Counted from the first letter of the stretch, positions 13,507-36,354 are shown. The stretch is 64,000 bases of DNA from Bacillota bacterium (GCA_023428025.1 JAEYZN010000031.1:8948-72947); one strand, 5' to 3'. Notes: generated from the letters alone by a model not told the origin. Numbers and translations: made by a program.

Positions 13507-13527
13507 TGGCGGAGAGCGTGGGATTCG
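13507..13527 (-). repeat. direct-repeat copy of the tRNA-Ser 3' end (island boundary, att remnant)
   Basis: tggcggagagCgtgggattcg compared with tggcggagagAgtgggattcg at 36265-36285. Identity is 20/21, in the same orientation. Confidence 0.8.
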
Positions 13528-13704
13528 CTCCGCCTGCCTGACGGCAGGCTATCACGCCGGGGCGCGCTGCTTCATCTGCCGCCGGCAGCGCAGAGCGCCC
13601 GTTCGAATCCATCCATGCCAAAACAAAAGGATACGGCTGACGGCGCACTGTTTTGACTTGTATCATATCGACGAAACAGATGCAGCCTCGACGCGGATAT
13701 AAAA

Positions 13705-13737
13705 ATATCGCGAACCGGTAAAAGCGATTCGCGATAT
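13705..13737. repeat. palindromic motif, copy B (ATATCGCGAAccggtaaaagcgaTTCGCGATAT)
   Basis: 32/33 identical to 1942-1974. Perfect 10-bp arms. Confidence 0.85.
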
Positions 13738-13751
13738 GGCTCCGGCCCTGC

Positions 13752-13766
13752 CGCTGGCGGAGAGAG
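13752..13766 (-). repeat. second, shorter tRNA-Ser 3'-end-like copy
   Basis: cgctggcggagagag. Its 12 nt tggcggagagag equal the tRNA end, and the cgc flank is shared with the copy at 13504-13516 but not with the tRNA itself. Confidence 0.5.
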
Positions 13767-14123
13767 ATGCCGCCGAATACCAGCATTTATAACTGAACAG
13801 GCATGGAGAAGAAGTCGTTTGGCCTAATAATTGAGAGGCTCGGTTGTAAGATAAAGAGTTGCCTTGAAGAGTCCATAATTGACCAATATAAACTATTTTA
13901 TGACATATCTAAGTTGCTGGAGCGTCATTGATAGGCCTTCCTCCGCAACCGCCTTATACGGCAGAAAAGCCGAGTTGATTCTTCATCCTCGCCATCCGCA
14001 AAAGCAACCTCAAAAACCGTATTTAAACCAGCCGCTTGAGGTTCATGGCTATAACCGCCACCATTATCCCCGCACAGACGTGTTTGCAATTATTATATCA
14101 GATATAATCCGTTTCTTCAGCGT

Positions 14124-14470
14124 TCATCGCAGTTTTGCCCTTGCGGAGGAATCGATGGCGTCCAGTTGGTTAAGATATTCCTTAACGCGAGCTTAGTAGA
14201 TACGTAGGAACTTGTTAGCGGCAACCATCATGTAAACATAGTAGCGCTTCCCCTCAGATCGTTTCTTGTCGAGAAATTCATATACCGGTTCGTCGGAACG
14301 GGATTTTTGCATGATGCAGAATATGACCTCATACAGTGTTTTCCTTAAAGATGACGAACTACGTTTTGAGATACTGCGGTTTTTTGCCTCAAACGTTCCG
14401 GATTGATACGGCCAAGAAGCTTGGTACAATTATTCTTTGGCATGGTGCCACATGACCACAGGATTCAATA
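14124..14470 (-). pseudogene. IS110-family transposase, C-terminal remnant with in-frame stops
   Basis: PYQSGTFEAKNRSISKRSSSSLRKTLYEV...PVYEFLDKKRSEGKRYYVYMMVAANKFLRIY*ARVKEYLNQL. A TAA at 14193-14195 interrupts the conserved RIYYARVKEYL-type tail. A further stop lies just upstream of 14429, and the N-terminal catalytic half is missing. Confidence 0.6.
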
Positions 14471-14536
14471 TAGATATCTTCAGCCTTTCGAGTTATAATA
14501 ATAATCAGATTTCTCACACCACATATGACAGTCGGA

Positions 14537-14796
14537 ACTATTTATAGCGTGGAGGGAGAGACCTCTGAATCCGTCCTGATATTCTTAAAGCAAAGGCCAA
14601 ACAGAAGGACGTTTATAGGACTTTAATTAGCCAAGGCTCTTACGCCGACAATGAAGAGATGCGAATCGTATATGTAGGGATGACTCAACCACGGAGATTA
14701 TTGATGTTGGCGGGGCCGGTGAAAGACGCTGTTGCTTGGCTAGTATTGTTTAACGCCTTAAGCCTGCAATTTGTAGAAGAAGAGCAGCTTCTATGA
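14537..14796 (+). pseudogene. SF1 (UvrD/RecD-like) helicase C-terminal fragment, frameshifted
   Basis: Frame 2 gives TIYSVEGETSESVLIFL (motif-V-like). Frame 1 gives EEMRIVYVGMTQPRRLLMLAG (motif-VI-like; compare RLLYVGxTRA). The frame switches near 14585-14590 and there is no N-terminal part. Confidence 0.45.
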
Positions 14797-15217
14797 GTAG
14801 GCATCTTGATACATTAAAAAAGATCTGCTATTATAATTAAAATTTATTAGGTTAATTCATCAGATGTAAGTCCATAAAACGGTCAATTAAGGTGATTTGA
14901 TACAGAAAGATGCTTGCAGAGACTATCTGTCTAAGCTGTGATGACCGGACGGATTTATATATGCCCTGTATGCCGCCGCCGAGAGTATTATCACATTACG
15001 GCATAGGTAAGAAGCATTTGCAGAGTCACTTGACGAATTCTGTTATCTGTTTAATCGCGGAGCCATGGGTAGCGTGATATTGACAGACTGCTTCTTGCCG
15101 CGACACAGTCAGCGCCATGAGATGCGCTGACTTATCTTAATCGCCATATTATGATAGTGTTTTAACGTTTGTACTCTTTACACCGACAACTTACATTAAC
15201 CACAGTTCAGGAAGTAT

Positions 15218-17014
15218 ATGAAAAAGATGACGTTCAAGAATTGGAGCATAAAAAATAAACTGCTTTTATATTTTATTTTGATTGCAATTGCATCAATTTT
15301 AGCTGCGGGAATTATCATCAATGCGTTGTTCTCAAATGCGCTGGAAAATGCTTCATATGAATCAACAAAAGTCGCGATTGGGCAAATAAATAATAGTATT
15401 GATTATTCCATTCTGAATTATGAAAATATAATAGATGTTATTGGAAGGAACACACAGGTTATTCGATACATGAGAGGAAACAGCGGACAATCTGCTTCTG
15501 AAGAATGGGGGCTGTTAGAAGCCAATATAAAAAGCTTGATTGATGACTTCCAATATAAGTATTATGGTATTGAAGGCATAGCAATCATAGGACATGATGG
15601 CTCCTTCATAAGCAACGAATTAAGCCCTGTTCAGCAAGAATTATTGGTTAATGAATCGTGGTATACAGAATCTATCGCCAAAACGGAGAAGTTGAATATT
15701 TTTGGTGATATGGGTACCCGTAATATCAAACGCACAGAACAGATAAGTACCAATGATTATTTTACCATTACCAAAGCGATTAAAGACCCTGCAACGAATT
15801 GGCCCATGGGTGTAATAGTCGTAGATTTGAATATCAAGCTTCTGGAAAACTTGGTGAAAAGCACACGGATTGGGAAGAATGGATTTGTTTATATTATAGA
15901 TTCGCAGGATAAAATTATATATTCCCCAAACGAAAAAGTGACATGTCGGGTCAAACAGGAGTGGTTTGGTGATGACAGGACATTTATTAAAATATTAAAG
16001 GGGGCACCATATCAGTTTATTTTCACATCTTCTTTTTATACGGAATGGAAGATTGTTGGTGTATTATATCAAAGTGAGACGATTGCGGAGGTATTAAAAC
16101 TCAGGCTTTATTTACTATATATTCTGATCGGAATATGTTTACTTGCGATTCCTGCATCGATAATGTTATCTTCAAATATCGCAAAACCAATTAAAAAGCT
16201 TCAAATGCTGATGAAACAAGCAGAACAGGGTACATTGGATGTCAGGTTTAATGCAAAGAGCCAAGATGAGATTGGCCAGCTTGGAAACAGTTTCAACAAA
16301 ATGCTGATCGAGATTAAAGAGCTCATGAACGAAATTTATAAGGAGCAGCGAAGCAAGCGAAAAGCTGAATTGCGTATTCTGCAGTCTCAAATCAAGCCGC
16401 ACTTCTTATACAACACATTGGATACGATTCATTGGATGTGCAAGAAATACGAGGCCAAAGATATTATTGAGATCGTGAATGCGCTGACAAAACTATTCCG
16501 CCTTGCGCTCAGTAAAGGTAAGGAAACGATCAGCCTGAAAGAAGAGCTTGAGCATGTTGGGAGCTATCTTATTATACAGAAGGAAAGATATGAAGACCTG
16601 ATAAGCTATGAGATTATTGAAAACGAGCAAATTGGCAGCTTAATGGTGCAAAAGCTCATATTGCAGCCGCTGGTCGAAAATGCAATCTATCATGGACTAA
16701 AGATAAAGAAAGACAAGGGAAGGATCACAGTATCCTCGGAGATAGAGAATGATGTATTATTATTAAAAGTGGAAGATAATGGTATTGGAATTGAAGAAGA
16801 AAAACTCAAGGAGCTGAACGAAATGCTGCAAAGCCAGAGGGATCGCCAAGACGGCTACGGCATATTTAATGTCAATGACAGAATTAAACTCACGTATGGC
16901 GATAAATATGGGCTGGATCTTTACAGTAAGTATGGCGCTGGTACCATAGCGGTGATAAAGCATCCGATCATTGAGGAGGGGGCAATCCATGTTAAAAGTT
17001 TTAATCGCGGATGA
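15218..17014 (+). CDS. sensor histidine kinase, LytS/YesM type (extracytoplasmic sensor domain + HAMP)
   Basis: 598 aa. Two TM segments flank a sensor domain of about 270 aa. HAMP region, H-box IKPHFLYNTLDTI, N-box LVENAIYHG and G-box VEDNGIGI. Confidence 0.9.
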   Translation: MKKMTFKNWSIKNKLLLYFILIAIASILAAGIIINALFSNALENASYESTKVAIGQINNSIDYSILNYENIIDVIGRNTQVIRYMRGNSGQSASEEWGLLEANIKSLIDDFQYKYYGIEGIAIIGHDGSFISNELSPVQQELLVNESWYTESIAKTEKLNIFGDMGTRNIKRTEQISTNDYFTITKAIKDPATNWPMGVIVVDLNIKLLENLVKSTRIGKNGFVYIIDSQDKIIYSPNEKVTCRVKQEWFGDDRTFIKILKGAPYQFIFTSSFYTEWKIVGVLYQSETIAEVLKLRLYLLYILIGICLLAIPASIMLSSNIAKPIKKLQMLMKQAEQGTLDVRFNAKSQDEIGQLGNSFNKMLIEIKELMNEIYKEQRSKRKAELRILQSQIKPHFLYNTLDTIHWMCKKYEAKDIIEIVNALTKLFRLALSKGKETISLKEELEHVGSYLIIQKERYEDLISYEIIENEQIGSLMVQKLILQPLVENAIYHGLKIKKDKGRITVSSEIENDVLLLKVEDNGIGIEEEKLKELNEMLQSQRDRQDGYGIFNVNDRIKLTYGDKYGLDLYSKYGAGTIAVIKHPIIEEGAIHVKSFNRG

Positions 17015-18194
17015 CGAACCCAAAATACGAAAAGGCCTCAGGGAAGCGTTTCAATGGAGCGACATGGGAATGGAGGTTGTCGCATTAGCTGAAGATGGAG
17101 TTGAGGCGCTTAATGCGGCAAAGGAACACCATCCGGATGTCTGCCTGATCGATATTTGCATGCCTGGCCTCAATGGGTTAGAGTTGATAGAAAGACTGAA
17201 AAATATTAACCCGTATGGTGTGAATATAATTGTATCTGGACATGAGGAGTTTGAATACGCAAAATCAGCCATAAACCTTGGGGTTTATGATTATGTGTTA
17301 AAGCCTGTCATTGAAGAGGATTTAAAGAAAATACTTATTAAAGCGGCGGATATTATTGAAAAGGAACGAATCAAAAGGAAGCGGTATGAATGGGCAGAAA
17401 AACAGCTCATGAAAAATATGGCTGTGCTCAAGGACCGTTTTATGCGCGAGTGGCTGGAGGGCTCGTTAAGCAAAGAGGAAATTGAGGAGCAGCTGGTTTT
17501 TTTCAATATAAAGCTTTCCGGTGATATCGGATTGCTTGTGTTAAATACTCAAACAAGCAACCAGCATGACAACCTGCTTTCCGAAAAGCAGGCACATGTT
17601 TTTTCTTTTGTGTTACAGCATTTGTTGGAAGAACGCCTGAGCAAGTTTCCAAACAAAGTGATTACAAGTGATAGCCAAAACAATATTCTTACAGTGGTTG
17701 AAAACGCTGATTTCGACGGGCTTCAAAGAATCTCAAAAAGCATTGAGCAGGAGATCAAAGACAAGCTACAATATGAATGCAGAATATTTTGTTTAAACGC
17801 TGGAAATATATATTCCGAACTGTGTTTATACTATGAGGAAGTTTTAAAAGAAATTGATGAGGCAGCCGACCGCCTGCCTATCATTACAAAAATCACAGAC
17901 TATGTGGAACGGCACTTCAATGAAATGGACTTGGGCTTGAACAGCATTGCCGAGAAATACTCATGGAGCCTTGCGCATTTAAGCCGTGTGTTTAAACGTG
18001 AAATGGGTATTACTTTTATGGAATTTTTAATAAAGGTTCGCATGCGTGAGGCGATAAAGCTTCTGACCAAGACGGATATGCGTATCTATGAAATCGCGGA
18101 AAAAGTGGGTTATCAGAGTCAACACTATTTTTGCGCGCGGTTTAAGAAGATATTTGGTATTGCTCCCACTGAATACCGAGACAAGGCGGAGTGA
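16989..18194 (+). CDS. response regulator with AraC-type HTH output (YesN type)
   Basis: MLKVLIADDEPKIRKGL...DVCLIDICMPGLNG receiver domain. C-terminal AraC HTH YEIAEKVGYQSQHYFCARFKKIFGIAPTEYR. ATG 16989 follows GAGGAGGGGG and overlaps the kinase end. Confidence 0.9.
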   Translation: MLKVLIADDEPKIRKGLREAFQWSDMGMEVVALAEDGVEALNAAKEHHPDVCLIDICMPGLNGLELIERLKNINPYGVNIIVSGHEEFEYAKSAINLGVYDYVLKPVIEEDLKKILIKAADIIEKERIKRKRYEWAEKQLMKNMAVLKDRFMREWLEGSLSKEEIEEQLVFFNIKLSGDIGLLVLNTQTSNQHDNLLSEKQAHVFSFVLQHLLEERLSKFPNKVITSDSQNNILTVVENADFDGLQRISKSIEQEIKDKLQYECRIFCLNAGNIYSELCLYYEEVLKEIDEAADRLPIITKITDYVERHFNEMDLGLNSIAEKYSWSLAHLSRVFKREMGITFMEFLIKVRMREAIKLLTKTDMRIYEIAEKVGYQSQHYFCARFKKIFGIAPTEYRDKAE

Positions 18195-19115
18195 ATGATG
18201 AAGATGGTCAGGTTAAAGAGCATAACTCAGCTAAAATGGCTGGCACTTCTAATCATTCTCGTACTCTGTTCTTCTTGCACTGTACAGAATGAAGGATACC
18301 AACACGTTGTCGGGGTTTCGCTCAATCAGATAAATGATATTTGGAACAGCGAGTTTTGCTCTGCTCTGTTATTAAACAGCAAAAGCGACGAAACGATTAA
18401 CTTTGTGTTTATGGACGCCGCTGGAGACGTGATTCGCCAGAAACAAGATATTGAAAAGCTTATGGATATGGAGGTGGATGCGCTGATTATTGTCCCGGAG
18501 AACATAGATTTTCTGGAAGACATATTATATGAGGCGATTGATCATGAGTGCATTGTGGGCATAGTCGGAAAACTGGTACAGGATGAGGAAATATATACGT
18601 TCAACGTCTATCCGGACAACCCCCGTATTGGGTTTCTCGCTGGACAGTATATGGCGGATAAACTGGATGGCAGCGGTCATATATTGGAAGTGCTTGGCGA
18701 GGAAGATTTGCTGAAAACACAAGAGATTACGGCAGGATTTAGAGAAGCGCTTCAAAACCACGAAGGTATTAAAGTCCCATATGTTCTTGTGGGGAAGGAT
18801 TCGAGGGATACAGTGAAAGAACGGGTTGTGGAAATTTTTCTGAAGGAACCTTTTACGGATGCTGTTTTTGCGCATTCAGACGCAATGGCATGGGGCGCAA
18901 GAATAGCGCTTGATAACCTTGGGCAGACTGCGCTCGTTGTAGGTGTGGGATGGGGAAATAAGGCCGATGCGAAAGCCTTAATTGACAAAGGGGCGATTGA
19001 TGCGGCCGTTTATATATCCACGGGTGCTAGCGAAACATTCGCGCAGATTCAAAAAGCAATTAACGGACAAGATGTAACCAAAAAGATTAAAATACAACCT
19101 GTCGTGATTCACTGA
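18195..19115 (+). CDS. periplasmic sugar-binding-like lipoprotein, probable ligand sensor for the two-component system
   Basis: 306 aa. Lipobox LCSSC/TVQ with a type-I PBP-like body. The start abuts the response-regulator stop (TGAATG). No permease or ATPase follows it. Confidence 0.65.
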   Translation: MMKMVRLKSITQLKWLALLIILVLCSSCTVQNEGYQHVVGVSLNQINDIWNSEFCSALLLNSKSDETINFVFMDAAGDVIRQKQDIEKLMDMEVDALIIVPENIDFLEDILYEAIDHECIVGIVGKLVQDEEIYTFNVYPDNPRIGFLAGQYMADKLDGSGHILEVLGEEDLLKTQEITAGFREALQNHEGIKVPYVLVGKDSRDTVKERVVEIFLKEPFTDAVFAHSDAMAWGARIALDNLGQTALVVGVGWGNKADAKALIDKGAIDAAVYISTGASETFAQIQKAINGQDVTKKIKIQPVVIH

Positions 19116-19184
19116 ACATGTTTAAATGTTTAAACCGTCAGCGTGTTTATTCTGTGTGCACGTGAATTGTTATGATTACCCTTT

Positions 19185-19273: not shown

Positions 19274-19363
19274 TCCAAAGAATTATGAACATTAAACAAA
19301 GTGTTTCTATTTGGGCTTTGGTGTTTTATTGACATATAAAAAATGATACAAGAGGAACAGAAA

Positions 19364-19720
19364 ATGAAGAAGTATTGCATGGTTAATGTCATCAAACAGG
19401 AGTATCTGGTTGCTTATATTGAGGCGCATTTAAATCCATGGGAGGAACTGCTCACATGTCTTAAGGAGGCGGGGACACATGAAGAGTGGATATACATGTA
19501 TAAAAACCTTGCCATTCTTTTTATCGAATGCGAAGACATGGATATGTACGTTGAAAAATTTGCAAAAAGCGAGACGGGAAAGAAATGGCTCAAAAAAATG
19601 TCTGAATATCTGGAATTCACAGAATTTGCGGACGATTCAGGTCAGGCAAAAAATTCGCCCGTCAGCTTAAGAAAAGTTTTCGATCTCAATGAGCAGCTTA
19701 GGGGCCATATAATGGATTAA
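19364..19720 (+). CDS. rhaM: L-rhamnose mutarotase-family protein
   Basis: H.NPW.E....LK..G.H...IY, LFIE.E, W...M and NSPVSLRKVFDL parallel E. coli RhaM (HNPIWPEL..., NSPVSSELQEVFYL). ATG 19364 follows GAGGAA. Confidence 0.65.
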   Translation: MKKYCMVNVIKQEYLVAYIEAHLNPWEELLTCLKEAGTHEEWIYMYKNLAILFIECEDMDMYVEKFAKSETGKKWLKKMSEYLEFTEFADDSGQAKNSPVSLRKVFDLNEQLRGHIMD

Positions 19721-19792
19721 TAGCCGTTTCACGAAATAAATTTGCTGACGTTGAAAAATATGTTTGCCGGACCCGGCAGAAAGGTGAGAGAA

Positions 19793-21178
19793 ATGATGAC
19801 AATGAAAAAACCCAGAGCATTAATTGTTCCTTGCAGGTGGATAGAAGGAAACCCCGTCGACGTGATTGACGCTCAGATTAAGTCCGCTTTGGAATTAATC
19901 AATAAAGCAGACATCGATTACGATGTGACAGACATGGTGGTGTATGATAAAGACGCGAATTCAATAAGGCAGAAATATAATGCGGCCAATTATGACTTCT
20001 CAATTATCATTATACCGACTTGGCTTGAGCCAATGCTCCCCATAAGAGCGATCAAGGATTTCCTGAATAAACCCATTGTCGTGTGGGGGTTCGGGACATT
20101 TAATCAATATGGAAAGCGTGTGGATATGGGTTCTATTCCGGGGTCGGGCGTGTTAAAAGGGACGCTTCGGGAAATGGGAGTGGAACATGAATACTTGTAT
20201 TATCTCCCGGGCAACGAAAAGACCGATCAGATAATGTTGACCAGATTAAGAAAGATTGCAAATGTTGCAAGAGCCATTTCGATGCTGGACAAGGCAAAAA
20301 TTGCTTCCATCGGCTATCTTTTTGGCGGTATGACGCTTGGAGATATTGATACTACCAAGATGAACACAGTTTTTGGTCCGGAACTTATGGAAAAGGACTT
20401 GTATTCATTGATCAGGGAAATGGAATCAATTGACGTTTCCGGCCAGGATTATGCTGACACCAGGAAATTTGTTGAAGGACATTTTAAAGCAAGCATAGGT
20501 GACAGAATCGACAAGGCGGTCAGGATGTATATGGTTCTGAAAAACTATGTGGATGATTACAATCTGGCCGCGATTACAGTGAAATGTCATTTTGAGTTAA
20601 GTGTTGAATATGGACAGACGGCTTGCATACCTTTATCAGTTTTAGGAAACTCGGTCGTGGCCGCCTGTGAATCCGACATACCCGTATTGCTAACCCAACT
20701 GGTCATGACCTATCTTTCCGGGGGGAAGAGTTCAGCATATGTCGACCTTCATGAAATCTCAGAGAAAGGACTGCTGATCGGCGCATGCGGATATGCCCCA
20801 TCCAGCATGTGCATCGGAAAGAAAATTGCATGCGGATGCTGCAATCCGGGTGATCAGGCTTCGGATAATTCATATAACGGATACATAACGAATATGAGCC
20901 ACTTGGATAAAGGCAAAGTGACGATCGGTCGCATCCTGAAAGAAAAAGATGGCGGATTTGCACTGCACTATACGACAGGCGATGCGGTTGGTGATATTGG
21001 CCAAATGAACCAATACGGACTTCCCCAATTCGCCTTCACCGAGGTTGTTCTGGATTCCGGGGTCGACAGGTTTGCTCAAAGCCTGGGAAGCCATCATTAC
21101 GCGGTCGTTTATGAGGATCTTCGTGATGAGTTTGACCTGTTCTGCCGATATAAGAATATTAAAAATCTAAAATATTAA
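19793..21178 (+). CDS. L-fucose isomerase-like protein (FucI/AraA superfamily), specificity unknown
   Basis: About 461 aa. The VVAACESDIPVL block resembles FucI ATENDSLN, and the C-terminal half has the isomerase-superfamily layout. Paralogous by eye to the genes at 24841, 26405 and 11144. Confidence 0.6.
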   Translation: MMTMKKPRALIVPCRWIEGNPVDVIDAQIKSALELINKADIDYDVTDMVVYDKDANSIRQKYNAANYDFSIIIIPTWLEPMLPIRAIKDFLNKPIVVWGFGTFNQYGKRVDMGSIPGSGVLKGTLREMGVEHEYLYYLPGNEKTDQIMLTRLRKIANVARAISMLDKAKIASIGYLFGGMTLGDIDTTKMNTVFGPELMEKDLYSLIREMESIDVSGQDYADTRKFVEGHFKASIGDRIDKAVRMYMVLKNYVDDYNLAAITVKCHFELSVEYGQTACIPLSVLGNSVVAACESDIPVLLTQLVMTYLSGGKSSAYVDLHEISEKGLLIGACGYAPSSMCIGKKIACGCCNPGDQASDNSYNGYITNMSHLDKGKVTIGRILKEKDGGFALHYTTGDAVGDIGQMNQYGLPQFAFTEVVLDSGVDRFAQSLGSHHYAVVYEDLRDEFDLFCRYKNIKNLKY

Positions 21179-21201
21179 GAGCAACTGCCGTGCATAAATA
21201 C

Positions 21202-21237: not shown

Positions 21238-21267
21238 CATAAATCTGTATGAATGGCGAGGAAGACA

Positions 21268-22527: not shown

Positions 22528-22573
22528 CGGCCTGAATTGTGAATGACGAGGCCATAGGGAAAGGCATTATTTG

Positions 22574-24812: not shown

Positions 24813-24840
24813 AAAATTATATTTAAAAAGGAGAAGGATT

Positions 24841-27981: not shown

Positions 27982-27999
27982 AATTAAAGGAGGAAATCA

Positions 28000-29037
28000 A
28001 TGAAGAAACTAATGGAAATTGCCATTGCGGTGTTGCTGGTCTTAGTGGTTGTGATTGGTTGCTCGGCTCCGGCTGAGAAGTCCGCTGCTTCAGAACCGGC
28101 AACGGAAAATGTGCAACCGGCCGAAGCTCCTGCCGAACAGCCAAACGAGCAATCTTCCGAAGAACCTGTAGGCAATGATAAGCCGGTTATCGGCATTTCT
28201 GTTTCCGGATTTGCGGCTCCGTATTTCAAAGCTTTGATAGCTGCAGCAGAAATGGAAGCCGAAGCGCAGGGGGTTGAATTAAAAGTGCTTGACGCCGAAT
28301 GGGATTCGCAAAAACAGGCAACTCAGGTTGAGAGCCTTATTGCTGCAGGATGTGACGTCATTGAAATCATTCCGTGCGACTCCACTGCGATTATTCCGAC
28401 AATGGAAAAAGTCAATGCGGCAGGTATCCCTCTGGTTGTGGTAAACACCCAGCATGACCCGGCATCCGAAGACCTTATTGTCACATTCGTTGGCGCGAGC
28501 ATGGAAGATGAAGCTGCGATGGCTGCGGAAGCGGTAAAAGAGATTCTTGGCGCTGAAGGCGGCAAGGTTGTGATCGTTGAAGGCGCAGCCGGTTCATTTC
28601 CTGCAATCCATAGAACAAGCGGGTTCTTGGCAGCCATTGAAGGCGCAAACATTGAAGTGCTTGCGAACCAGAATGCTGGCTGGGACAGAGCGACGGCTAT
28701 GGCGGTAATGGAAGACTTCCTGACGGCGTATCCCGATATCGATGCACTGTACGCGCATGACGACAACATGGTCATCGGTTGCATTCAGGCGATCAAAGAT
28801 GCCGGCAGAGAAGATGAGATTAAGGTCGTCTCGATCAGCGGAACAATTGAAGGCTATGATGCAATCCGTAACGGTGAATTGTACAGCACCGTCTCGCAAC
28901 CGCCGGATTGGGAAGGCATGATGGCTGTCCAGGTCGCGGTTGGCATTTTGAACGGCGAAGAATACCCCAAATGGGTAAAAACACCGATCGCTCAGGTTAC
29001 AGCGGAAAACGTTGACAAATTCAAAGGCGTTTGGTAA
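28000..29037 (+). CDS. ABC sugar transporter substrate-binding lipoprotein (SBP-1)
   Basis: 345 aa. Lipobox VVIGC/SAP with an acidic/Pro linker. GFAAPYF, DALYAHDD and STVSQPPDWEG blocks are shared with the protein at 33780. Confidence 0.8.
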   Translation: MKKLMEIAIAVLLVLVVVIGCSAPAEKSAASEPATENVQPAEAPAEQPNEQSSEEPVGNDKPVIGISVSGFAAPYFKALIAAAEMEAEAQGVELKVLDAEWDSQKQATQVESLIAAGCDVIEIIPCDSTAIIPTMEKVNAAGIPLVVVNTQHDPASEDLIVTFVGASMEDEAAMAAEAVKEILGAEGGKVVIVEGAAGSFPAIHRTSGFLAAIEGANIEVLANQNAGWDRATAMAVMEDFLTAYPDIDALYAHDDNMVIGCIQAIKDAGREDEIKVVSISGTIEGYDAIRNGELYSTVSQPPDWEGMMAVQVAVGILNGEEYPKWVKTPIAQVTAENVDKFKGVW

Positions 29038-29157
29038 AGGGTTATGGTTGGGTAAACGCGGAAACGCGTATACCCAACTCTTTTTCAATGTATTGTTAAG
29101 GTGAAATTAATAAAGTTAATTATTATTTGAGCGACATATTGCAGGTGGGAAATAGTG

Positions 29158-30648
29158 ATGAAACAAAATATGATACTTGAATTAAAGAATGTAAGCAAGA
29201 GTTTTCCCGGGGTTAAAGCGCTGGATGATGTTTCATTTGAACTGATGAAAGGTGAGGTTCATGCTTTATGCGGTGAAAACGGCGCCGGTAAATCCACTCT
29301 CATGAAGATCCTGTATGGGGTTTATCATCTGGATTCAGGACAGATATGGATCAAGGGCGAAAAAAAAGATATTGAGTCTCCGCTGGTGGCACAAGCCAAC
29401 GGCTTAAGCATAATATTTCAGGAGTTCAATCTGGTGGAAACACTGTCAGTTGCTGAGAACATATATCTTGGCCGATTGAGAGTGCAGAAGGGAAAAGTGG
29501 GCTGGAAAACGATCCACGCGAATGCAAAGGAGTTACTCTCCCATATTGGATGTGATATTAATACTAGACTGCTAATAAGCGAACTGAGCATTTCGCAGAA
29601 GCAAATGGTGGAGATTGCCAAAGCGCTATCATATAACGCCGAGGTAATCGTGATGGACGAACCTTCCGCGACGTTGACGGAAAAGGAAGTTGAAAATCTT
29701 TATAAAATCGTCGCGGAGCTCAAAACGAAGGGAATCAGCGTTATCTATATATCTCACAAGCTTGAAGAGGTCTTTGATATCTCCGACAGGGTATCAGTGC
29801 TCAGAGACGGAAAGCTGGTCTGCACAGATGAGACAAAGAATCTTGATAAACAGAAAATCATTGGCCACATGGTGGGGCGTTCGTTTGATCAAGAATTCCC
29901 ATCCAGGGGGAGCTGCTGCGGTGAAGAAGTATTGCGTGCTGAAAATATTGTGCGCAGAGGTGTTCTTAAAAACATCAGTATTAATCTAAACAAGGGGGAA
30001 GTACTTGGTTTGGCAGGTTTGGTTGGTGCTGGCCGAACGGAATTGGTGCGTGCAATTTTTGGTGCTGACAAGTTTCGGAGTGGTACCATTATGATACATG
30101 GCAGGAAAGTAGCAATACGAAAACCAATTGACGCAATAAAAAACAAAATTGCGCTTGTGACAGAAGATAGAAAGGACCAAGGCTTGATACTTAAATTTCC
30201 AATCAAGCTAAACATTACGATTACTGATCTGAAGAGGATAGTTAATTTTGGGCTGATTAACAAAAGAAAAGAAGTTGCTTTTGCAAACGAATATGCGAAG
30301 AAACTGTCAGTGAAGACACCAAGCATCAACCATAAATGCATAAATCTATCTGGCGGGAATCAGCAAAAAGTGGTTCTGGCAAAGTGGCTATTTGCAAACG
30401 CAGATATATTGATACTGGATGAACCGACGAGAGGTATTGATGTTGGCGCAAAACACGAGATCTATTTGATTATCAATGAATTGGTACGACAAGGAAAATC
30501 TGTAATACTAATATCTTCAGAACTTCCAGAGGTACTGGCGATGAGTGACAGGATCGTTGTATTGCATGAGGGCGAAGTAAAAGGAGAGTTTGACAATCGA
30601 GAAAGACAAGTGGTTGCCGAGCAGATAATGCTCTGCGCAATTGGGTGA
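29158..30648 (+). CDS. sugar ABC transporter ATP-binding protein (duplicated NBD)
   Basis: GENGAGKSTLMK, VIVMDEPSATL, LSGGNQQKVVLAKWL and LILDEPTRGIDVGAK. Confidence 0.9.
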   Translation: MKQNMILELKNVSKSFPGVKALDDVSFELMKGEVHALCGENGAGKSTLMKILYGVYHLDSGQIWIKGEKKDIESPLVAQANGLSIIFQEFNLVETLSVAENIYLGRLRVQKGKVGWKTIHANAKELLSHIGCDINTRLLISELSISQKQMVEIAKALSYNAEVIVMDEPSATLTEKEVENLYKIVAELKTKGISVIYISHKLEEVFDISDRVSVLRDGKLVCTDETKNLDKQKIIGHMVGRSFDQEFPSRGSCCGEEVLRAENIVRRGVLKNISINLNKGEVLGLAGLVGAGRTELVRAIFGADKFRSGTIMIHGRKVAIRKPIDAIKNKIALVTEDRKDQGLILKFPIKLNITITDLKRIVNFGLINKRKEVAFANEYAKKLSVKTPSINHKCINLSGGNQQKVVLAKWLFANADILILDEPTRGIDVGAKHEIYLIINELVRQGKSVILISSELPEVLAMSDRIVVLHEGEVKGEFDNRERQVVAEQIMLCAIG

Positions 30649-31649
30649 TTCGGAATTGTATGAGAGGTAAAGTTATGCAAACTATAGGGAATTTAAAAAG
30701 GCTTCCAGCTATTGTCGGCTTCTTATCAAGGATCAAAATGCTTATCGCACTAATGGTGCTCATCATTATATCTTCGTTTATATCCGATGTGTTTATGAGC
30801 ACTAACAATATTTTCAACATACTGCGTCAGGTATCCATGAACGGGATACTAGCTTGTGGAATGACGTTTGTTATGCTGACGGGTGGTTTCGATCTGTCTG
30901 TTGGTTCCATTATTTCTGTATCTGCAGTTGTTGCTATCGGCCTGCAAAGTAGCATGGGTGTTGCAGGAGCAATTATCGTGGCATTGCTTATTGGTATTAT
31001 TGCGGGAAGCATTAATGGAATTATTCTTTCAAAAATCAATGCAAACTCTGGAGATGCGTTTATGATTACGCTCGGATCGCAACTGGTTTTTGCGGGGATT
31101 GCGCTGCTGTATACAGATGCGCGTGTTTTACCTGGCAGTTCTGATCCTTTTTATGAATTTATCGGTCAGGGAAGGGTGTTGGCTGGTATTCCCATGCCGG
31201 TTTTCATCTTTTTAGCCATTGCGATCATCGGACAATTTGTCCTGTCTTTTACCGGCTTTGGGAGAAAAGTATATCTGCTGGGCGGCAACTATGAGGCGGC
31301 GCGTTTATCTGGAATTAAGGTTGGTTTTTATAAGGCTTCTGTTTATATGATTGTGGGTTTTTGCGCAGCGATTGCCGGAATCATACTCAGTTCACGCACA
31401 AGAGGCGGATCACCACTTGCGGGTGTCGGATATGAGATGGACGCAATCGCAGCCGTGGTTGTCGGCGGTATCAGTATGAAAGGCGGAGAAGGCAGCATTC
31501 TCAAAACGTTGGTTGGCGTCTTTATCATCGGTGTGCTGAGCAACATTCTTAACTTAATAGGCCTATCATCATTTAACCAGATGATCGTAAAAGGATTTGT
31601 CATCGTCGCTGCGGTTTGGTTGGACAGTCGAAAAAAGCCGAGCAAATGA
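30645..31649 (+). CDS. sugar ABC transporter permease 1
   Basis: Multi-TM with the GGNYEAARLSGIKV block. The start is uncertain: GTG 30645 (overlapping the upstream stop), ATG 30660 or ATG 30675. Confidence 0.8.
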   Translation: MIRNCMRGKVMQTIGNLKRLPAIVGFLSRIKMLIALMVLIIISSFISDVFMSTNNIFNILRQVSMNGILACGMTFVMLTGGFDLSVGSIISVSAVVAIGLQSSMGVAGAIIVALLIGIIAGSINGIILSKINANSGDAFMITLGSQLVFAGIALLYTDARVLPGSSDPFYEFIGQGRVLAGIPMPVFIFLAIAIIGQFVLSFTGFGRKVYLLGGNYEAARLSGIKVGFYKASVYMIVGFCAAIAGIILSSRTRGGSPLAGVGYEMDAIAAVVVGGISMKGGEGSILKTLVGVFIIGVLSNILNLIGLSSFNQMIVKGFVIVAAVWLDSRKKPSK

Positions 31650-32611
31650 GGTTAAGGAAAATGGAAACCACTTTAAAAAGACTGAGTAAAAAACTGTTCA
31701 AAGAAAAGATTCTGGTAGCGGGTATCGGGTTTTTTATCGCGGTAGCAATCGTCAACCCACCTTTTCTGACAATTGAAAACTTATCCAACCTGACAATTCA
31801 AATATCATTATATGGAATTGCGGCAATCGGGATGACATTTGCGATTATCGGTGGAGAGTTTGATTTGTCGATCGGATCTATGATATCTTTGTGCGGTGTA
31901 TTGGTAGCGGTTTTCTATCCGATTTTTGGGCTGGGCCTGTCATTGATCATCGCTGTTATTTCTGGAATTTTGCTAGGAGTTATCAATGGTTTGCTGGTTG
32001 CAAAGGCTAATATCAATGCATTTATCGTAACGTTTGGTGGAATGATTACATATAAAGGGCTTGCGCTGACGTTTGCAGATGGCAGGCCGGTAATTTGTCA
32101 AAGTGAAGCGTTGAATTATTTTGGAGATATGCGCGCGGGTGGCATCCCGATTATGTTTCTAATTTTCCTTGTGTTGCTGGCTATTAGTGTTTATTTACTA
32201 GGGTATACGCGTTTTGGCCGCAATGTTTATGCGGTTGGCGGAAATATTGACGTAGCCGCGGCAACTGGGCTGAATACCTGGATTTACAAATTCGCCATAT
32301 TTGCGATTAACGGTCTGGCGGCGGCGGTTATCGGCATATTAATGACGGCGCGACTCAACACAGGTTCTCCGGTTATGGGAGATGATATCACACTGACCGT
32401 TATCGCAAGCGTTGTTTTGGGTGGAACAAGCCTGTCAGGAGGCAAAGGTAATACATTCCGGACGTTGCTTGGTGTGGTTGTGATGATGATGCTGGCCAAT
32501 GCGTTTGACCTGCTCGTGATCCAGCCATATATTCAAAAGGTTATCAAAGGGCTTATCATTATCGCTGTTGTGGCTTTCGACAGCTATAATAAGAAAAAGC
32601 TGATTGTTTAG
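31646..32611 (+). CDS. sugar ABC transporter permease 2
   Basis: Multi-TM with the GGNIDVAAATGLN block. ATG 31646 overlaps the upstream stop (ATGA); the alternative start is ATG 31661. Confidence 0.8.
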   Translation: MRLRKMETTLKRLSKKLFKEKILVAGIGFFIAVAIVNPPFLTIENLSNLTIQISLYGIAAIGMTFAIIGGEFDLSIGSMISLCGVLVAVFYPIFGLGLSLIIAVISGILLGVINGLLVAKANINAFIVTFGGMITYKGLALTFADGRPVICQSEALNYFGDMRAGGIPIMFLIFLVLLAISVYLLGYTRFGRNVYAVGGNIDVAAATGLNTWIYKFAIFAINGLAAAVIGILMTARLNTGSPVMGDDITLTVIASVVLGGTSLSGGKGNTFRTLLGVVVMMMLANAFDLLVIQPYIQKVIKGLIIIAVVAFDSYNKKKLIV

Positions 32612-32763
32612 AATTTTCCGCAGTAAATGATATTTCTCACAAAACGTAGCGGTGAACTTTAGGGTCTCATCGCTACACACTTATATAATGAATGACTTTT
32701 TAAAATGAGGGATCCTTGGCCTGTGGCGTATATGCAAAAAAAATATGGGATAGCAGGTATAAA

Positions 32764-33768
32764 ATGAGACAACTGGCATTTTACTTCTTTTTAATATTGG
32801 GGTTGCTGGTTTCTTTGGCAGGATGCGCGCCGCTGGATAATAGAGATGCAACCGAAAAAAAAATTGAAGAGACGACCATATCGAGTGAATCTGTGGTGGA
32901 ATACGTGGAGATATGCAGCACAATCACTATTGGCGTTGCCTTGCTGGATGAGGAAAATTTATTCATTTCGCAACTCAAAAAGGCAATGAGCCAAACTGCG
33001 GATGACGTAGGAGTGGTTCTGATATTCAAGAATGGCAAGAATAATCCGCAAAAGCAGGTGAAGCATGTGGAGGAATTTATTTCGCAGATGGTCGATATTA
33101 TAATCCTCAACGCAGCCTCTTATTCTGACTGCGCTCCTGCGGTTGATTTAGCCGTACAAAAGGGTATTCCCATCGTGACGGTGAACACCAAAGTGGAAAA
33201 TCAATATAAGTGTGAGTCTTTTATCGGCTCTGATGCTGTTCAATCGGGGCGTTTACAACTGCAAAGTGTAGCAAATGTTTTTGACGGAAAGTGCAGCTTT
33301 TTATACTTAAAAGGTCCGATTGGCCATGAAGCGGAGCTTGGAAGAAAAATCGGGATGAATGAGATTTTATCGCAGTTCCCCGATATGCATTTGATTTATG
33401 AACAGTCTGCAAACTGGAGCATGTCGGAAGCGTATATTATTACTAAAAACAGCCTCGCGACGTATGATAAAATTGACGCTGTTGTAGCGCAAAATGATGA
33501 AATGGCGCTCGGAGCCCTACAGGCAATCAATGACGCCGGTAAGTCAGGGCAAATCAAAGTGTTCGGTATTGATGCGATACCGGAAGCTCTGCAAGCTATC
33601 AAGGAGGGGGAGATGGAATCCACCGTTCTTCAAAACGCAGATATACAGGGGAAAGAGGCCATATTGGCAGCGAAAAGCATAGCGTTGGGTAAAAAAGTTA
33701 AAAAAGAAATAATGATTTCCTATAAGCTTATAGATAAAGAAAACATTAATTTTTATTTAAGTGAGTGA
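32764..33768 (+). CDS. sugar-binding lipoprotein (SBP-2, distinct from SBP-1/3)
   Basis: MRQLAFYFFLILGLLVSLAGC/AP lipobox. Type-I PBP body with VVAQNDEMALGA and KVFGIDA blocks. Confidence 0.75.
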   Translation: MRQLAFYFFLILGLLVSLAGCAPLDNRDATEKKIEETTISSESVVEYVEICSTITIGVALLDEENLFISQLKKAMSQTADDVGVVLIFKNGKNNPQKQVKHVEEFISQMVDIIILNAASYSDCAPAVDLAVQKGIPIVTVNTKVENQYKCESFIGSDAVQSGRLQLQSVANVFDGKCSFLYLKGPIGHEAELGRKIGMNEILSQFPDMHLIYEQSANWSMSEAYIITKNSLATYDKIDAVVAQNDEMALGALQAINDAGKSGQIKVFGIDAIPEALQAIKEGEMESTVLQNADIQGKEAILAAKSIALGKKVKKEIMISYKLIDKENINFYLSE

Positions 33769-33779
33769 TCAAGGTGTTG

Positions 33780-34754
33780 ATGAAACGTATTTTGTTTTTT
33801 GTTATTACTTGTATGATTTTATTAAGCGGATATGGCTGCAAACAGAGTATTACTGAAAACCAAACTGACCCTTATGTTGCAAGACGCATTCAGTCAGGTA
33901 AAAGCATTGGATTTTCGGTGGCGGGTTTTGCAGCGCCATATTTTAGCGTATTGATAGACTATGCAAAGCTTGAAGCCTTAGAAAATGATGTATATCTTTA
34001 TGTGAAGGATGCGAAGTGGAATACCGTTCAGCAATCAGCGGATATTGATGAGTTTATCGGTCTTGGCGTTGATGCCATTTGTGTGATACCAATTGATTCC
34101 AAGCAAATCATACCTTCTTTTGAGAAAGTAAAAAAGGCAGATATACCGCTTATTGATGTTAACGTACAGCACGATCCGCAGGCAGAGGGCTTGATTGACT
34201 GCTTTGTCGGTGCCAGCATGACCAAGCAAGCCGCAATGGCGGCTGAGTCGTTAATGGGGCTGATGAAAGAAGATGATACAAACATAATTATGCTGGAAGG
34301 GGCGGCAGGGAATTTTGCTACAATTGGAAGAGCAAAGGGATTTGAAGAGATGATTGCCGGAACCAGATTTAAAATAATCGGCCGCGCATACACAGGCTGG
34401 GAAAAAGATAAAGCGGAAGAAATAATGAAAGAAATGCTTGAAAAATATGATGATATCGATGCGCTGTATGCGCATGACGATGATATTGCAATAGGAGCAA
34501 TACAGGCGATAAAGGCTTCCGGACGGGCAGGAGAGTTCCCGATAGTTTCCATATCAGGGAATATTGACGGCTATGAAGCGATTAAACGAGGCGAGATATT
34601 AAGCACCGTATCGCAGCCTCCGGATTGGGAAGGAATAATGGCAATACGTGTGGCAATTGATCTGATGGAGGGGAGAGAAGTAAAAAAGTGGATTGAAACC
34701 CCTGTTGCGCTGGTTACAAAAGAGAATGTATCGGAGTATAAGGGACTCTGGTAA
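33780..34754 (+). CDS. sugar-binding lipoprotein (SBP-3, paralogue of SBP-1)
   Basis: MKRILFFVITCMILLSGYGC/KQ lipobox. GFAAPYF, DALYAHDDD, STVSQPPDWEG and a ...KGLW C-terminus are colinear with the protein at 28000-29037. Confidence 0.8.
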   Translation: MKRILFFVITCMILLSGYGCKQSITENQTDPYVARRIQSGKSIGFSVAGFAAPYFSVLIDYAKLEALENDVYLYVKDAKWNTVQQSADIDEFIGLGVDAICVIPIDSKQIIPSFEKVKKADIPLIDVNVQHDPQAEGLIDCFVGASMTKQAAMAAESLMGLMKEDDTNIIMLEGAAGNFATIGRAKGFEEMIAGTRFKIIGRAYTGWEKDKAEEIMKEMLEKYDDIDALYAHDDDIAIGAIQAIKASGRAGEFPIVSISGNIDGYEAIKRGEILSTVSQPPDWEGIMAIRVAIDLMEGREVKKWIETPVALVTKENVSEYKGLW

Positions 34755-34825
34755 GCGTTTAATAAGCAAAGAGAAGGTCAAACAGGTGCCTATCAAAAAG
34801 TTACACAAGATAGATAAAAAATGAT

Positions 34826-34852
34826 AAAGAGCTGGCAGCTCTTTTTATTTTA
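34826..34852 (+). terminator. intrinsic terminator after the ABC/SBP genes
   Basis: aaagagc-tggca-gctcttt followed by ttattttat. Confidence 0.6.
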
Positions 34853-34971
34853 TATTGAAAAACAGTATCGAATTGGTACAGTTCGATAAAATACATCGGG
34901 CATTCCTTAGATACCTACATTTATGACAGGCCGGAATTAGAATAAACTTAAAAAAGGATTGTAAAATAGAA

Positions 34972-35822
34972 ATGATAGCGCGAAATGAACAGCTTGGCCT
35001 TTATGAAAAAGCAATTCCATACGAAACAGATTGGAAAACAAAACTGGTCTCGGCAAAAGAAGCGGGCTTTGACTTTTTCGAAATCAGCATTGATGAGTCG
35101 AAAGAGCGGATGCTAAGGCTCGACTGGGATATGAGCCAAAGAAAAGAGTTGGTCAATGCAAGCCTTAAAGCCGGACTTCAGATCCGCACAATGTGCTTAA
35201 GCGGACACCGCAAGTATCCGCTTGGCAGCGGGAAAAAGGAAATAGAAAATAAATCGCTTGAGATTATGAAAAAAGCCATTGATTTAGCAGCTTTCATTGG
35301 CGTGCGTATTATCCAAATAGCAGGATACGATGTTTATTATGATGAGCAGTCTTGCCCTGAGACGAGAGAACGTTTCGCATTGAATTTGGAAAAAAGTGTG
35401 GAGATGGCGTCGCGCGTGGGTATTATCTTGGCGCTGGAAACAATGGAAAACGACTTTATGAATACGGTGAAGAAAGCAATGAAGTTTGTGAGCATGATTA
35501 ATTCTCCGTATTTAAAGATTTATCCCGATTCGGGCAATATTGCGAACGCTGTGCGTGATGTTCGAACTGACATTATGTATGGAGATGGACATATTGTCGC
35601 CGCGCACTTGAAAGAAACAAACCCCGGCGTATTTCGCGAAGTGCCGTATGGAATGGACATGTGGATTTTGTTGAAGCGATAAAAGCATATAAAAAGGTTG
35701 GAGTCAATATGTTTCTTGCGGAGTTTTGGTGCGTAAATGGAAGTAATTGGAGGAAGATATTAAAGCAATACAATCAGTTTTTGAGGAACAAAATAGAACT
35801 AGCAAATAGATCTGAGAATTGA
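34972..35822 (+). pseudogene. sgbU: L-xylulose-5-phosphate / L-ribulose-5-phosphate 3-epimerase (UlaE/SgbU type) with a 1-nt frameshift
   Basis: LGLYEKA.P, GFDF.E.S.DE..ER..RLDW, MCLS.HR..PLGS, IQ.AGYDVYY and YPD.GN are colinear with E. coli UlaE. Frame 1 stops at 35682 (VPYGMDMWILLKR*). The next frame continues as NGHVDFVEAIKAYKKVGVNMFLAEFW... to 35822. The junction is at 35650-35655 (ggaatgga where ggaaatgga is expected). Confidence 0.75.
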
Positions 35823-35835
35823 GACTAAAAACGCC

Positions 35836-36218
35836 TTGATATTCCTGCTTGAACAGATGGTGAACAGCAATGTCTCTGAGGTGATGTTTAAGAAAGCAGG
35901 AGGAGCTTGCCGGTCAACGTATCGCGCTGAAAGCCGAACTGAATGAAATCAGGGACGACACCAGATACATCAAGGATATGGTTGTAAGTTCAAGGTCAGA
36001 AATTACATTGAATCGCTCGACAGGGAAACGGCGGTTGAACTGATTGACCATATCAAGGTGTTTAAAAAGGAAAAGGCGGCTGAGGGCGGCTATGTTCAAA
36101 GAGTCGATATATACTTCGACTTCATCGGCAAATCAATTATTTGGACTTCGATAATTTCAAGGACTATCTGAAAGACAAGATATCCAAAGACCCGGCAACA
36201 AGCCAAAAAGCCGGATAA
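35836..36218 (+). pseudogene. large serine recombinase, C-terminal (DUF4368-like) fragments in three frames
   Basis: EELAGQRIALKAELNEIRDDTRYIKDM (coiled coil), then NYIESLDRETAVELIDHIKVFKKEKAAEGGYVQRVDIYFDFIGK, then INYLDFDNFKDYLKDKISKDP. This matches the L.RE...LID.I.V....(x)..I.I.Y.F.G tail typical of clostridial large serine recombinases. The N-terminal resolvase domain is absent. Confidence 0.55.
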
Positions 36219-36264
36219 TCCTGCTAAAAGAAAAATCACAAGGCATGAATATACCTTGTGATCA

Positions 36265-36354
36265 TGGCGGAGAGAGTGGGATTCGAACCCACGGTTGCTT
36301 GCGCAACACCGGTTTTCAAGACCGGCACTTTAAACCAGACTCAGACATCTCTCC
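36265..36354 (-). tRNA. tRNA-Ser (anticodon UGA), class II with long variable arm, CCA encoded
   Basis: Hand fold: GGAGAGA/TCTCTCC acceptor, CCGGT-CTTGAAA-ACCGG anticodon arm, GTTGC-GCAA-GCAAC variable arm, GTGGG-TTCGAAT-CCCAC T arm, then GCCA. Caveat: the D stem has only 2 Watson-Crick pairs in my fold (T10/T25 mismatch). Confidence 0.85.

Follow-up and report, generated by a model that had tools for sequence, protein, structure and literature searches.

The 64,000-nucleotide stretch of Bacillota bacterium DNA analysed here (GCA_023428025.1, JAEYZN010000031.1:8948-72947; referred to below as the window) carries a sugar-utilisation island at the 3' end of its sole tRNA gene, tRNA-Ser(UGA). 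With good confidence, the segment at 13767-36264 can be read as the immobilised remains of an integrative, probably mobilisable element whose integrase would have been a TnpX/TndX-like large serine recombinase. Elements of this kind are known; what sets this one apart is the pairing of a serine integrase with a tRNA target, which is uncommon, yet has been anticipated computationally. An earlier note, made from the sequence alone, had proposed a horizontally acquired island of about 22.8 kb at this tRNA end. Acquisition at the tRNA-Ser(UGA) 3' end is supported by composition, by attachment (att) repeats and by relatives; the island's extent had to be corrected to 22,498 bp.

Boundaries and attachment sites of the island

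ARAGORN and Rfam (56.4 bits) confirm the intact tRNA-Ser(UGA) gene, anticodon tga, on the minus strand at 36265-36354. The gene encodes its own CCA, and a promoter-like site lies at 36395-36366 on the same strand. An exact repeat search places a perfect 12-bp direct repeat, TGGCGGAGAGAG on the plus strand, at 13755-13766 (the attL core) and within the tRNA gene at 36265-36276 (the attR core). There is no third copy in the window, against an expectation of 0.02. The 12-mer corresponds to tRNA positions 65-76, which comprise the last T-stem base (65), the 3' strand of the acceptor stem, the discriminator base and CCA, and it contains three GA dinucleotides.

The left end of the island was located by comparison with relatives, whose contigs were reached through homologues of the PocR/AraC regulator in the right flank. 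One of them, L005, has flanks about 96% identical to those of the window and matches it up to the core and up to the tRNA end, with a 1.6-kb MatE segment replacing the 22.5-kb island. The homology breaks at the junction GGCCCTGCCGC/TGGCGGAG, where the window continues with the full 12-mer at 13755-13766. Homology to element joints in the contigs L105 and L109 begins at this same core. Because the L005 homology ends and the left arm of the element family starts at the second perfect 12-bp copy, the true island end is 13755-13766. The interior is therefore 13767-36264, an extent that agrees with the drop in G+C content. The earlier note had taken a longer, 21-nucleotide repeat at 13507-13527 as the attachment site, but the sequence from 13507 to 13754 is shared with the island-free L005. 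The empty site it proposed, the tRNA joined to 13472-13527, is the wrong junction, since the island ends at the 12-bp core. The predicted empty-site junction is instead GGCCCTGCCGC+TGGCGGAGAGAG+TGGGATTCGAACC.

Both arms of the element have homologues elsewhere. The left (P') arm, 13767-13829 on the plus strand, matches the sequence beyond the core in L105 (8970-9032) and L109 (10401-10461) at 77-81% identity. BLAST alignments that include the core (window 13755-13829) run to L105 8958-9032 at 81% and to L109 10389-10461 at 77%, and they begin at core base 1. On the right, window 35843-36276 aligns with L105 8518-8969 (76%) and L109 9951-10398 (82%), and both alignments end with the core. The right (P) arm includes a hairpin at 36234-36263 (minus strand) that is kept in L097, L105 and L109; it is supplied by the island and is the terminator that the tRNA now uses.

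In L105/L106 and L109-L111 these pieces stand in one run: the recombinase 3' end, the conserved hairpin, TGGCGGAGAG(A/G)G and about 75 bp homologous to window 13767-13829. Since P arm, core and P' arm are contiguous there, the arrangement is an attP-like joint, whose sequence is divided in the window between attL (13755-13829) and attR (right arm and tRNA). The circular joint of the excised element is accordingly predicted to read ...ACCTTGTGATCA-TGGCGGAGAGAG-ATGCCGCCGAATACC... An imperfect dyad (GGCGG ... CCGCC) in the reconstructed attP of the window is centred near the 3' end of the core.

The island differs in composition from its host surroundings. G+C between the repeats is 43.6%, compared with flanks at 55.5% (left) and 58.3% (right). 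The G+C content at third codon positions (GC3) is 41-56% for island genes and 78-81% for flank genes. The tetranucleotide distance from the host profile is 0.40-0.60 inside the island and 0.14-0.25 outside. All three statistics uphold the compositional contrast drawn in the earlier note, and its spot G+C counts (13/60, 42/60 and 32/60) are exact. More short low-GC patches lie amid GC-rich surroundings elsewhere in the window, at 4001-5000 (42%) and 53001-54000 (40%).

A recombinase remnant facing the tRNA

Both gene-free ends of the island were translated in six frames and scanned against Pfam. The right end holds the last ~125 codons (~375 bp) of a TnpX/TndX-like large serine recombinase, at 35843-36218 on the plus strand, interrupted by two frameshifts and reading toward the tRNA. 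It is identified by a match at about 36004-36132 (plus strand, E=7.8e-9) to DUF4368, the domain with which TnpX/TndX-type large serine recombinases end. A search with the reconstructed fragment gave 71-78% amino acid identity to four short homologues (P0241-P0244), and at the DNA level 35843-36276 is 76-82% identical to recombinase gene 3' ends in L105 and L109-L112. The claim that a serine-recombinase C-terminal fragment abuts the tRNA is thus borne out by both domain and DNA evidence. The Resolvase, Recombinase and zinc-ribbon domains, present in family copies such as L109 and P0249, are encoded nowhere in the window in the six-frame scan. With the catalytic, Recombinase and zinc-ribbon domains absent, the locus is a pseudogene fragment and not a recombinase.

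More complete copies reveal what the fragment once belonged to. The gene beside the joint in L109-L111 has all four domains (Resolvase, Recombinase, Zn-ribbon and DUF4368) and is broken by one 1-nucleotide frameshift; in L112 the gene is interrupted by a single in-frame stop. The nearly complete copies in L109 and L112 stand at the same position relative to the core. An exhaustive HMMER search aligned the window-type C terminus with residues 375-561 of P0249, an intact 562-amino-acid protein with all four domains. The remnant also aligns to the C-terminal part of a 601-amino-acid recombinase in L107, a protein that itself matches the L109 and L112 copies by tblastn. The closest solved structure is TnpX of Tn4451 (E=2.8e-33), and the best annotated relatives are TndX proteins, at 38% identity.

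The position of the gene is as informative as its identity. In every copy about 45-50 bp separate the end of the recombinase gene from the core, across five independent contexts, and in the window the distance to attR is about 45 bp. It is because this cohesion of gene and att site holds across the five contexts that the serine recombinase is considered the probable integrase. A NikA/MobC-like gene lies upstream of the recombinase in relatives, and in L112 an AAA_25 gene is present as well, an arrangement that suggests a mobilisable element. No Mob relaxase is encoded in the window and no TnpZ-type relaxase was seen; the relatives have the NikA/MobC-like accessory gene only.

No intact recombinase, integrase or transposase open reading frame lies between the repeats, and none was found in the six-frame translations, as expected from the earlier description of the mobility genes as fossils. 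Phage_integrase domains are absent from the island open reading frames, from the six-frame translations of the decayed ends and from the gene tables of the loci that share the att site. The left end, 13830-15217, is a decayed non-coding stretch with no intact gene. It contains about 80 C-terminal codons of an insertion sequence (IS) 110 transposase at about 14193-14429 (minus strand), a far-end fragment that had been noticed before. The fragment matches an annotated IS110 transposase by tblastn (E=5e-12) and Transposase_20 weakly in Pfam (about 14298-14411, minus strand, E=0.007), and it falls short of an intact transposase with both DEDD_Tnp_IS110 and Transposase_20 domains. A superfamily 1 (SF1) helicase fragment reported in the same region found no Pfam match even at E<=10 and no DNA match.

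All copies of the subfamily that could be placed in context (L105, L109-L112, L097 and the window) are inactivated, each in a different way. The lesions comprise one frameshift, one nonsense codon, a 189-amino-acid C-terminal open reading frame, a ~375-bp stub and a ~100-bp stub. A single 3.3-Mb genome carries at least five intact copies of 54%-identical relatives. When metagenomes were scanned with an alignment of the recombinase C terminus, only two distant full-length recombinases (24-25%) were recovered, which support the fold family and not the att site; scans of viral contigs gave nothing or a chance match.

Alternative occupants of the tRNA end

The tRNA-Ser gene beside PocR is kept in all relatives; precisely at its 3' terminus their sequences cease to match one another. 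At least eight different inserts are found at this point among the window and its relatives, and one relative has none. In place of the 22,498-bp sugar island of the window, L005 has MatE and PNPOx genes, L007/L011 another two-component and ABC (ATP-binding cassette) sugar cluster, L008 a type I restriction-modification system with TniQ, L096 TniQ, a sigma factor and DUF6034, and L010 an insert of unknown content. L097 combines a cargo of its own, GH127 with a sugar ABC transporter, with the same right arm and tRNA as in the window. L012 has a type I restriction-modification system together with an N-terminally truncated serine recombinase of another lineage, whose open reading frame runs through the tRNA. 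The relative represented by L099-L101 (85% PocR identity) has no island: there, hydrogenase-maturation genes and a methyltransferase come to within 88 bp of the tRNA. Eight different occupants and one island-free relative mark the tRNA end as a recombination hot spot. Names attached to the PocR homologues point to Christensenellales, and judged by them the host would be Christensenellales-like.

Other features of these alleles are of interest in their own right. The L012 recombinase (8502-9842) has Recombinase and Zn-ribbon domains, lacks DUF4368 and the catalytic domain, and abuts tRNA-Ser; with no stop codon ahead of the tRNA, its open reading frame continues across the entire tRNA gene in antisense. 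In L008 (8336-9544) and L096 (8259-9503) a gene for a TniQ-domain protein of about 400 amino acids stands closest to the tRNA end, and the cargo behind it differs. The two share a conserved hairpin near the tRNA end, and the last 33 bp before the tRNA are common to L008 and L007, not to L096. These TniQ alleles may represent a third element family at tRNA-Ser. A low-GC (38%) DUF6034 gene lies at window 477-1919 (plus strand), and DUF6034 is also found inside the L096 tRNA-Ser island (692-2137), which hints that the variable region of the window may extend far left of the island. To the right, L005 lacks the 1.2-kb low-GC segment at 43518-44745 that includes a gene for a NUDIX hydrolase (43618-44181, minus strand), a second small indel that is strain-specific.

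Six Logan contigs from different samples (L002, L013, L098 and L102-L104) break at or inside the tRNA-Ser gene. L002, which starts exactly at the tRNA 3' end, was considered as a within-sample polymorphism and set aside, as the other Logan contigs break variously inside the tRNA. Such breaks probably come from shared tRNA k-mers or strain mixtures in assembly graphs and are not evidence for excision. A contig search with the D-lyxose isomerase of the left flank returned one close relative, L017 (89%), which has no tRNA-Ser near the locus and is uninformative.

An older scar and stacked terminators

The 21-nucleotide repeat described in the earlier note is real and records an older event. The 3'-terminal 21 nucleotides of the tRNA, TGGCGGAGAGAGTGGGATTCG on the plus strand, recur at 13507-13527 with 20/21 identity and in the same orientation as at 36265-36285, the identity extending from CCA into the T-loop. 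Only these two matches occur in the window at up to three mismatches, with 0.03 expected by chance. L005 carries the scar as TGGCAGAGAGAGTGGGATTCG, with its single substitution at another place. Since the two scars differ from the tRNA end by different single substitutions, the ancestral copy matched perfectly. Between the scar and the attL core, 13528-13754 is a GC-rich (59%) remnant of an earlier integrated element: window 13528-13582 and 13596-13762 are 90-92% identical to L005 6175-6229 and 6895-7057. Being GC-rich and shared in pieces with the island-free L005, the region 13507-13754 predates the island. The suggestion that the 21-nucleotide repeat might belong to another RNA gene was followed up across 13507-13790. 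ARAGORN found nothing there, and Rfam gave only a sub-threshold small RNA match (24.6 against 40 bits) that is the terminator hairpin, so the suggestion was rejected.

Downstream of each tRNA-end copy, on the minus strand, lies a terminator. The oldest, CCCCTTTACGAAGGGG followed by a T-run at 13483-13498, was recovered in a terminator scan 9 nucleotides downstream of the 21-nucleotide copy, where the earlier note had placed one. The second fossil terminator, at 13705-13737, has a 13-bp stem, ATATCGCGAA...TTCGCGATAT, followed by a T-run, 18 nucleotides downstream of the 12-bp copy. With the present terminator, this gives three nested units of tRNA end and terminator (36263-36234, 13737-13705 and 13498-13483). 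As every copy of the tRNA end has its own terminator, at least two successive integrations took place, each displacing the prior tRNA end and terminator.

The older layers show further signs of rearrangement. L005 holds two copies of the old module of tRNA end and remnant at 6154-7057, with the PNPOx gene between them, which indicates probable tandem accretion and loss. The single, hybrid-looking module of the window is consistent with old tandem elements having collapsed by recombination in its lineage. The 33-nucleotide perfect-stem hairpin of the second fossil terminator, ATATCGCGAACCGGTAAAA(G/T)CGATTCGCGATAT, recurs at 1942-1974; the two copies are 91% identical over 43 bp, with 0.02 expected. 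The copy at 1942-1974 directly follows the low-GC DUF6034 gene, and that at 13705-13737 is the fossil tRNA terminator in the old remnant. As direct repeats the two flank the entire sugar operon from LacI to D-lyxose isomerase (~2.0-13.5 kb), which may also have arrived through an older event at tRNA-Ser.

A model of integration and its rivals

The proposed history begins with a circular element whose attP would have run from the recombinase 3' end and terminator hairpin through TGGCGGAGAGAG to the P' arm. Recombination within the 12-mer, identical to the last 12 nucleotides of tRNA-Ser(UGA), would insert the element. The crossover would probably fall at one of the GA dinucleotides of the core, by analogy with TndX, which uses a central GA dinucleotide (PMC4430133). 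Insertion would restore the full tRNA gene with a new, element-derived terminator and shift the old end and its terminator to 13755-13766 and 13705-13737. Before it, another element, of a different type, would have inserted in the same manner, and to that event would belong the 21-nucleotide scar at 13507-13527 and a terminator older still, at 13483-13498. Later deletions would have taken the recombinase gene except for about 375 bp, along with any mobilisation genes, and an IS110 copy would have decayed at the left end. The outcome would be an island fixed in place.

Several observations weigh against this account. No copy in the family combines an intact recombinase with a tRNA junction, and the near-intact L109 and L112 have an attP-like joint or a truncated contig and lack a tRNA within 10 kb. 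Since long contigs of lower GC content (35-50%) surround the attP-like joints, these probably mark tandem or nested elements and not observed circles. The occurrence of intact relatives in multiple copies in one genome means that some members may be less site-specific. The precise empty site (B arm, core and tRNA) was not found among the relatives, in which the exact junction was not searched for; the closest are L005, with its alternative occupant, and the island-free, more distant L099. The pathway proposed for the cargo (see below) may be broken, as its 3-epimerase gene is frameshifted. A serine integrase needs only a 2-bp overlap, and 12 bp of identity cannot prove the type of recombinase. 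Finally, serine integrases are rarely found at tRNA genes: in a survey of 2,168 genomes, t(m)RNA genes were used by 44.5% of tyrosine-integrase elements and by 4.9% (14/297) of serine-integrase elements (PMC7192596).

Among the alternatives, the one that survives best, though it is unlikely, is that this lineage received the island by homologous recombination across conserved flanks (tRNA/PocR on one side, the old remnant/LyxI on the other) from a conspecific carrier. Many alternative alleles with 82-97% flank identity circulate in related populations, and alleles differ between close strains even though all recombinase copies placed in context are dead. Such a transfer would merely shift the integration to another strain, and attL and attR would still need an original site-specific event. 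Exact-protein look-ups with both flanking genes and RhaA returned four same-strain contigs, all with the island and all in the same context, so that the exact RhaA protein is confined to those contigs and no second carrier with different flanks appeared.

It is considerably less probable that a tyrosine integrase, since deleted, integrated the island and that the serine remnant is an unrelated passenger or a later insertion. The dominance of tyrosine integrases at tRNA sites in the survey would fit this history, as would the decay of about 1.4 kb at the left end and of further sequence at the right. The older scar ends in the T-loop, and an identity block from CCA into the T-loop is reportedly typical of tyrosine-integrase sites. 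The constant spacing between recombinase 3' end and core in five independent contexts argues otherwise, as do the absence of a Phage_integrase domain from all the loci sharing the att site and the presence of a second serine recombinase lineage against the same tRNA end in L012.

Harder still to maintain is the view of one 22.8-kb island between the 21-nucleotide repeats (13507-13527 and 36265-36285) that would include 13528-13754. The repeat is significant and a terminator follows its distal copy, but the GC-rich sequence from 13507 is present in the island-free L005, the left arm of the family starts at 13767 after a perfect 12-bp repeat, and a second fossil terminator lies between the repeats. 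That the region is ancestral, deleted in relatives and shaped in composition by local selection can be virtually dismissed, for although the exact empty site was not recovered, GC3 is 41-56% against ~80% in the flanks, att repeats, a recombinase remnant and an IS fragment are present, the nearest RhaA homologue is at 69%, no relative's locus holds cargo homologues above 50%, and in the island-free relative 88 bp separate core genes from the tRNA.

The sugar-utilisation cargo

The island carries 16 intact genes and one frameshifted gene, all on the plus strand, so the cargo is mostly intact, as had been claimed, with the 3-epimerase as the gene that is not. The regulatory genes, assigned with Pfam, come first: a dCache-HAMP histidine kinase (15218-17014), a receiver-AraC response regulator (16971-18194) and a periplasmic-binding-protein-like partner (18195-19115). 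They are followed by a RhaM-like mutarotase (19343-19720) that passes in Pfam only, an AraA/SftI-like isomerase (19742-21178; Pfam and NCBIfam) and the L-rhamnose isomerase RhaA (21268-22527; NCBIfam score 603.8 against a cut-off of 572). An FGGY kinase (22571-24112) is closest to XylB (xylulokinase) and below every equivalog cut-off. Next are an AraD-type L-ribulose-5-phosphate 4-epimerase of the class II aldolase fold (24114-24812; 359 against a cut-off of 257) and two further AraA/FucI-like isomerases (24772-26340 and 26405-27817; Pfam and NCBIfam). A ribose-type ABC transporter, assigned with the same two databases, comprises a sugar-binding protein (28000-29037), a double ATPase (29155-30648), two permeases (30645-32611) and two extra binding proteins (32716-34754), which makes three binding proteins in all. 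The last gene, 34972-35822, is a pseudogene of an L-ribulose-5-phosphate 3-epimerase (UlaE/SgbU type) with one frameshift near 35660: 34972-35682 covers model positions 2-231 of 286, and 35661-35822, in another frame, covers 235-283.

The description of the cargo as a self-contained sugar regulon is fair. A standard rhamnose regulon, by comparison, finds no support: rhamnulokinase and rhamnulose-1-phosphate aldolase are missing, the FGGY kinase scoring 56.6 against the rhamnulokinase cut-off of 528, and the cargo is therefore not the canonical set of RhaA, RhaB, RhaD and RhaM. It would instead be a self-regulated module in which the histidine kinase, the AraC-type regulator and the binding-protein sensor are predicted to switch on the importer and the catabolic genes. 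The enzymes suggest a route from mutarotase through the isomerases (RhaA and three AraA-like proteins), the FGGY kinase and the 3- and 4-epimerases to D-xylulose-5-phosphate, which points to an L-pentose or a deoxy or rare sugar as the probable substrate. Tracing the cargo to a donor, as the earlier note had suggested, did not lead to a nameable lineage, the best non-self match to RhaA among 5.8 billion proteins being at 69%. No cargo homologue above 50% identity was found in the relatives' loci.

The left flank (2101-13262), of host-like composition, is itself a rare-sugar operon. It encodes LacI, a Zn-dependent alcohol dehydrogenase (minus strand; listed for the same-strain contig L003), a binding protein, an ABC ATPase, a permease, a TIM-barrel isomerase, a glyoxalase, a short-chain dehydrogenase/reductase (SDR), an AraA-like isomerase and a D-lyxose isomerase. 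Together with the island cargo, it places two sugar modules of different origin back to back at tRNA-Ser.

Relation to known systems

The family recombinase shares its Resolvase, Recombinase, Zn-ribbon and DUF4368 architecture with TnpX of Tn4451, Tn4453 and Tn6104 and with TndX of Tn5397. As in the clostridial mobilisable transposons, the recombinase gene lies at the very end of the element, oriented toward the joint, and relatives have a NikA/MobC-like gene upstream. The two-component system and ABC transporter of the cargo recall Tn6104, whose cargo can include both (PMC4430133), and the GA dinucleotides of the core recall TndX sites. Unlike the clostridial mobilisable transposons, the element has one specific target, the tRNA-Ser(UGA) 3' end, and a 12-bp identity between attP and attB that restores the gene. 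In place of the relaxase with an origin of transfer (oriT) and the many GA-centred sites of the Tn4451 family, the window and L097 copies occupy one tRNA site. The recombinase is less than 40% identical to TndX in amino acids, and the window copy is down to the last ~125 codons.

In classical tRNA-integrated islands and in prophages with tyrosine integrases (Islander/TIGER type), the tRNA is intact at one boundary and a copy of its 3' end has been displaced to the other. The island shares this arrangement with them, as well as foreign composition, sporadic occurrence among strains, tandem accretion and a decayed integration module. It differs in that the integrase remnant is serine-type, with no tyrosine integrase, and in that the 12-bp identity block stops at position 65 and not in the T-loop or anticodon loop.

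A functional analogy can be drawn with the staphylococcal cassette chromosome elements (SCC/SCCmec). There, the 3' end of rlmH receives variable cargo through Ccr large serine recombinases, which preserve the gene and leave short direct repeats. Tandem and composite arrays are found, many "pseudo" elements lack a recombinase, and the site acts as an exchange point for accessory genes. The likeness is one of function only, as the recombinase subfamily, the target (tRNA versus rlmH) and the hosts differ.

The catabolic genes resemble the L-lyxose/L-xylulose and L-ascorbate branch of E. coli, with a predicted RhaA-type isomerase, an FGGY kinase (LyxK/SgbK), SgbU/UlaE and SgbE/UlaF/AraD. In that branch an isomerase, a kinase, a 3-epimerase and a 4-epimerase act in turn to give D-xylulose-5-phosphate. 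Unlike the E. coli branch, the island has a kinase below every equivalog cut-off, three extra AraA/SftI-like isomerases and a frameshifted 3-epimerase, and its regulation is by a two-component system and not by RhaS/RhaR or UlaR.

Meaning of the locus

Islands at tRNA genes are textbook material, and with the island dead its presence alone is unsurprising. Of wider interest are the two nested scars, each with its fossil terminator, which make the locus a readable record of successive insertions. A broader reading, evenly balanced between support and doubt, is that this TnpX/TndX-like subfamily specifically targets the 3' end of the tRNA-Ser(UGA) acceptor stem and that in gut Christensenellales the tRNA end serves as a cassette-exchange site. 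The 12-bp identity between attP and attB would rebuild the tRNA and provide a new terminator, and modules for sugar utilisation, restriction-modification and efflux would be swapped between strains and stacked in layers.

The family supplies attP, attB, attL and attR sequences together with near-intact genes for testing the pairing of a serine integrase with a tRNA gene. In the published survey no experimentally proven case of such a pairing is reported, and proof is called for (PMC7192596). If the reading is true, the locus would be a well-defined, testable case of the pairing flagged there as unproven. With at least eight gene sets, several of them for sugar utilisation, the tRNA end is a likely driver of strain-level carbohydrate niche in uncultured gut Christensenellales.

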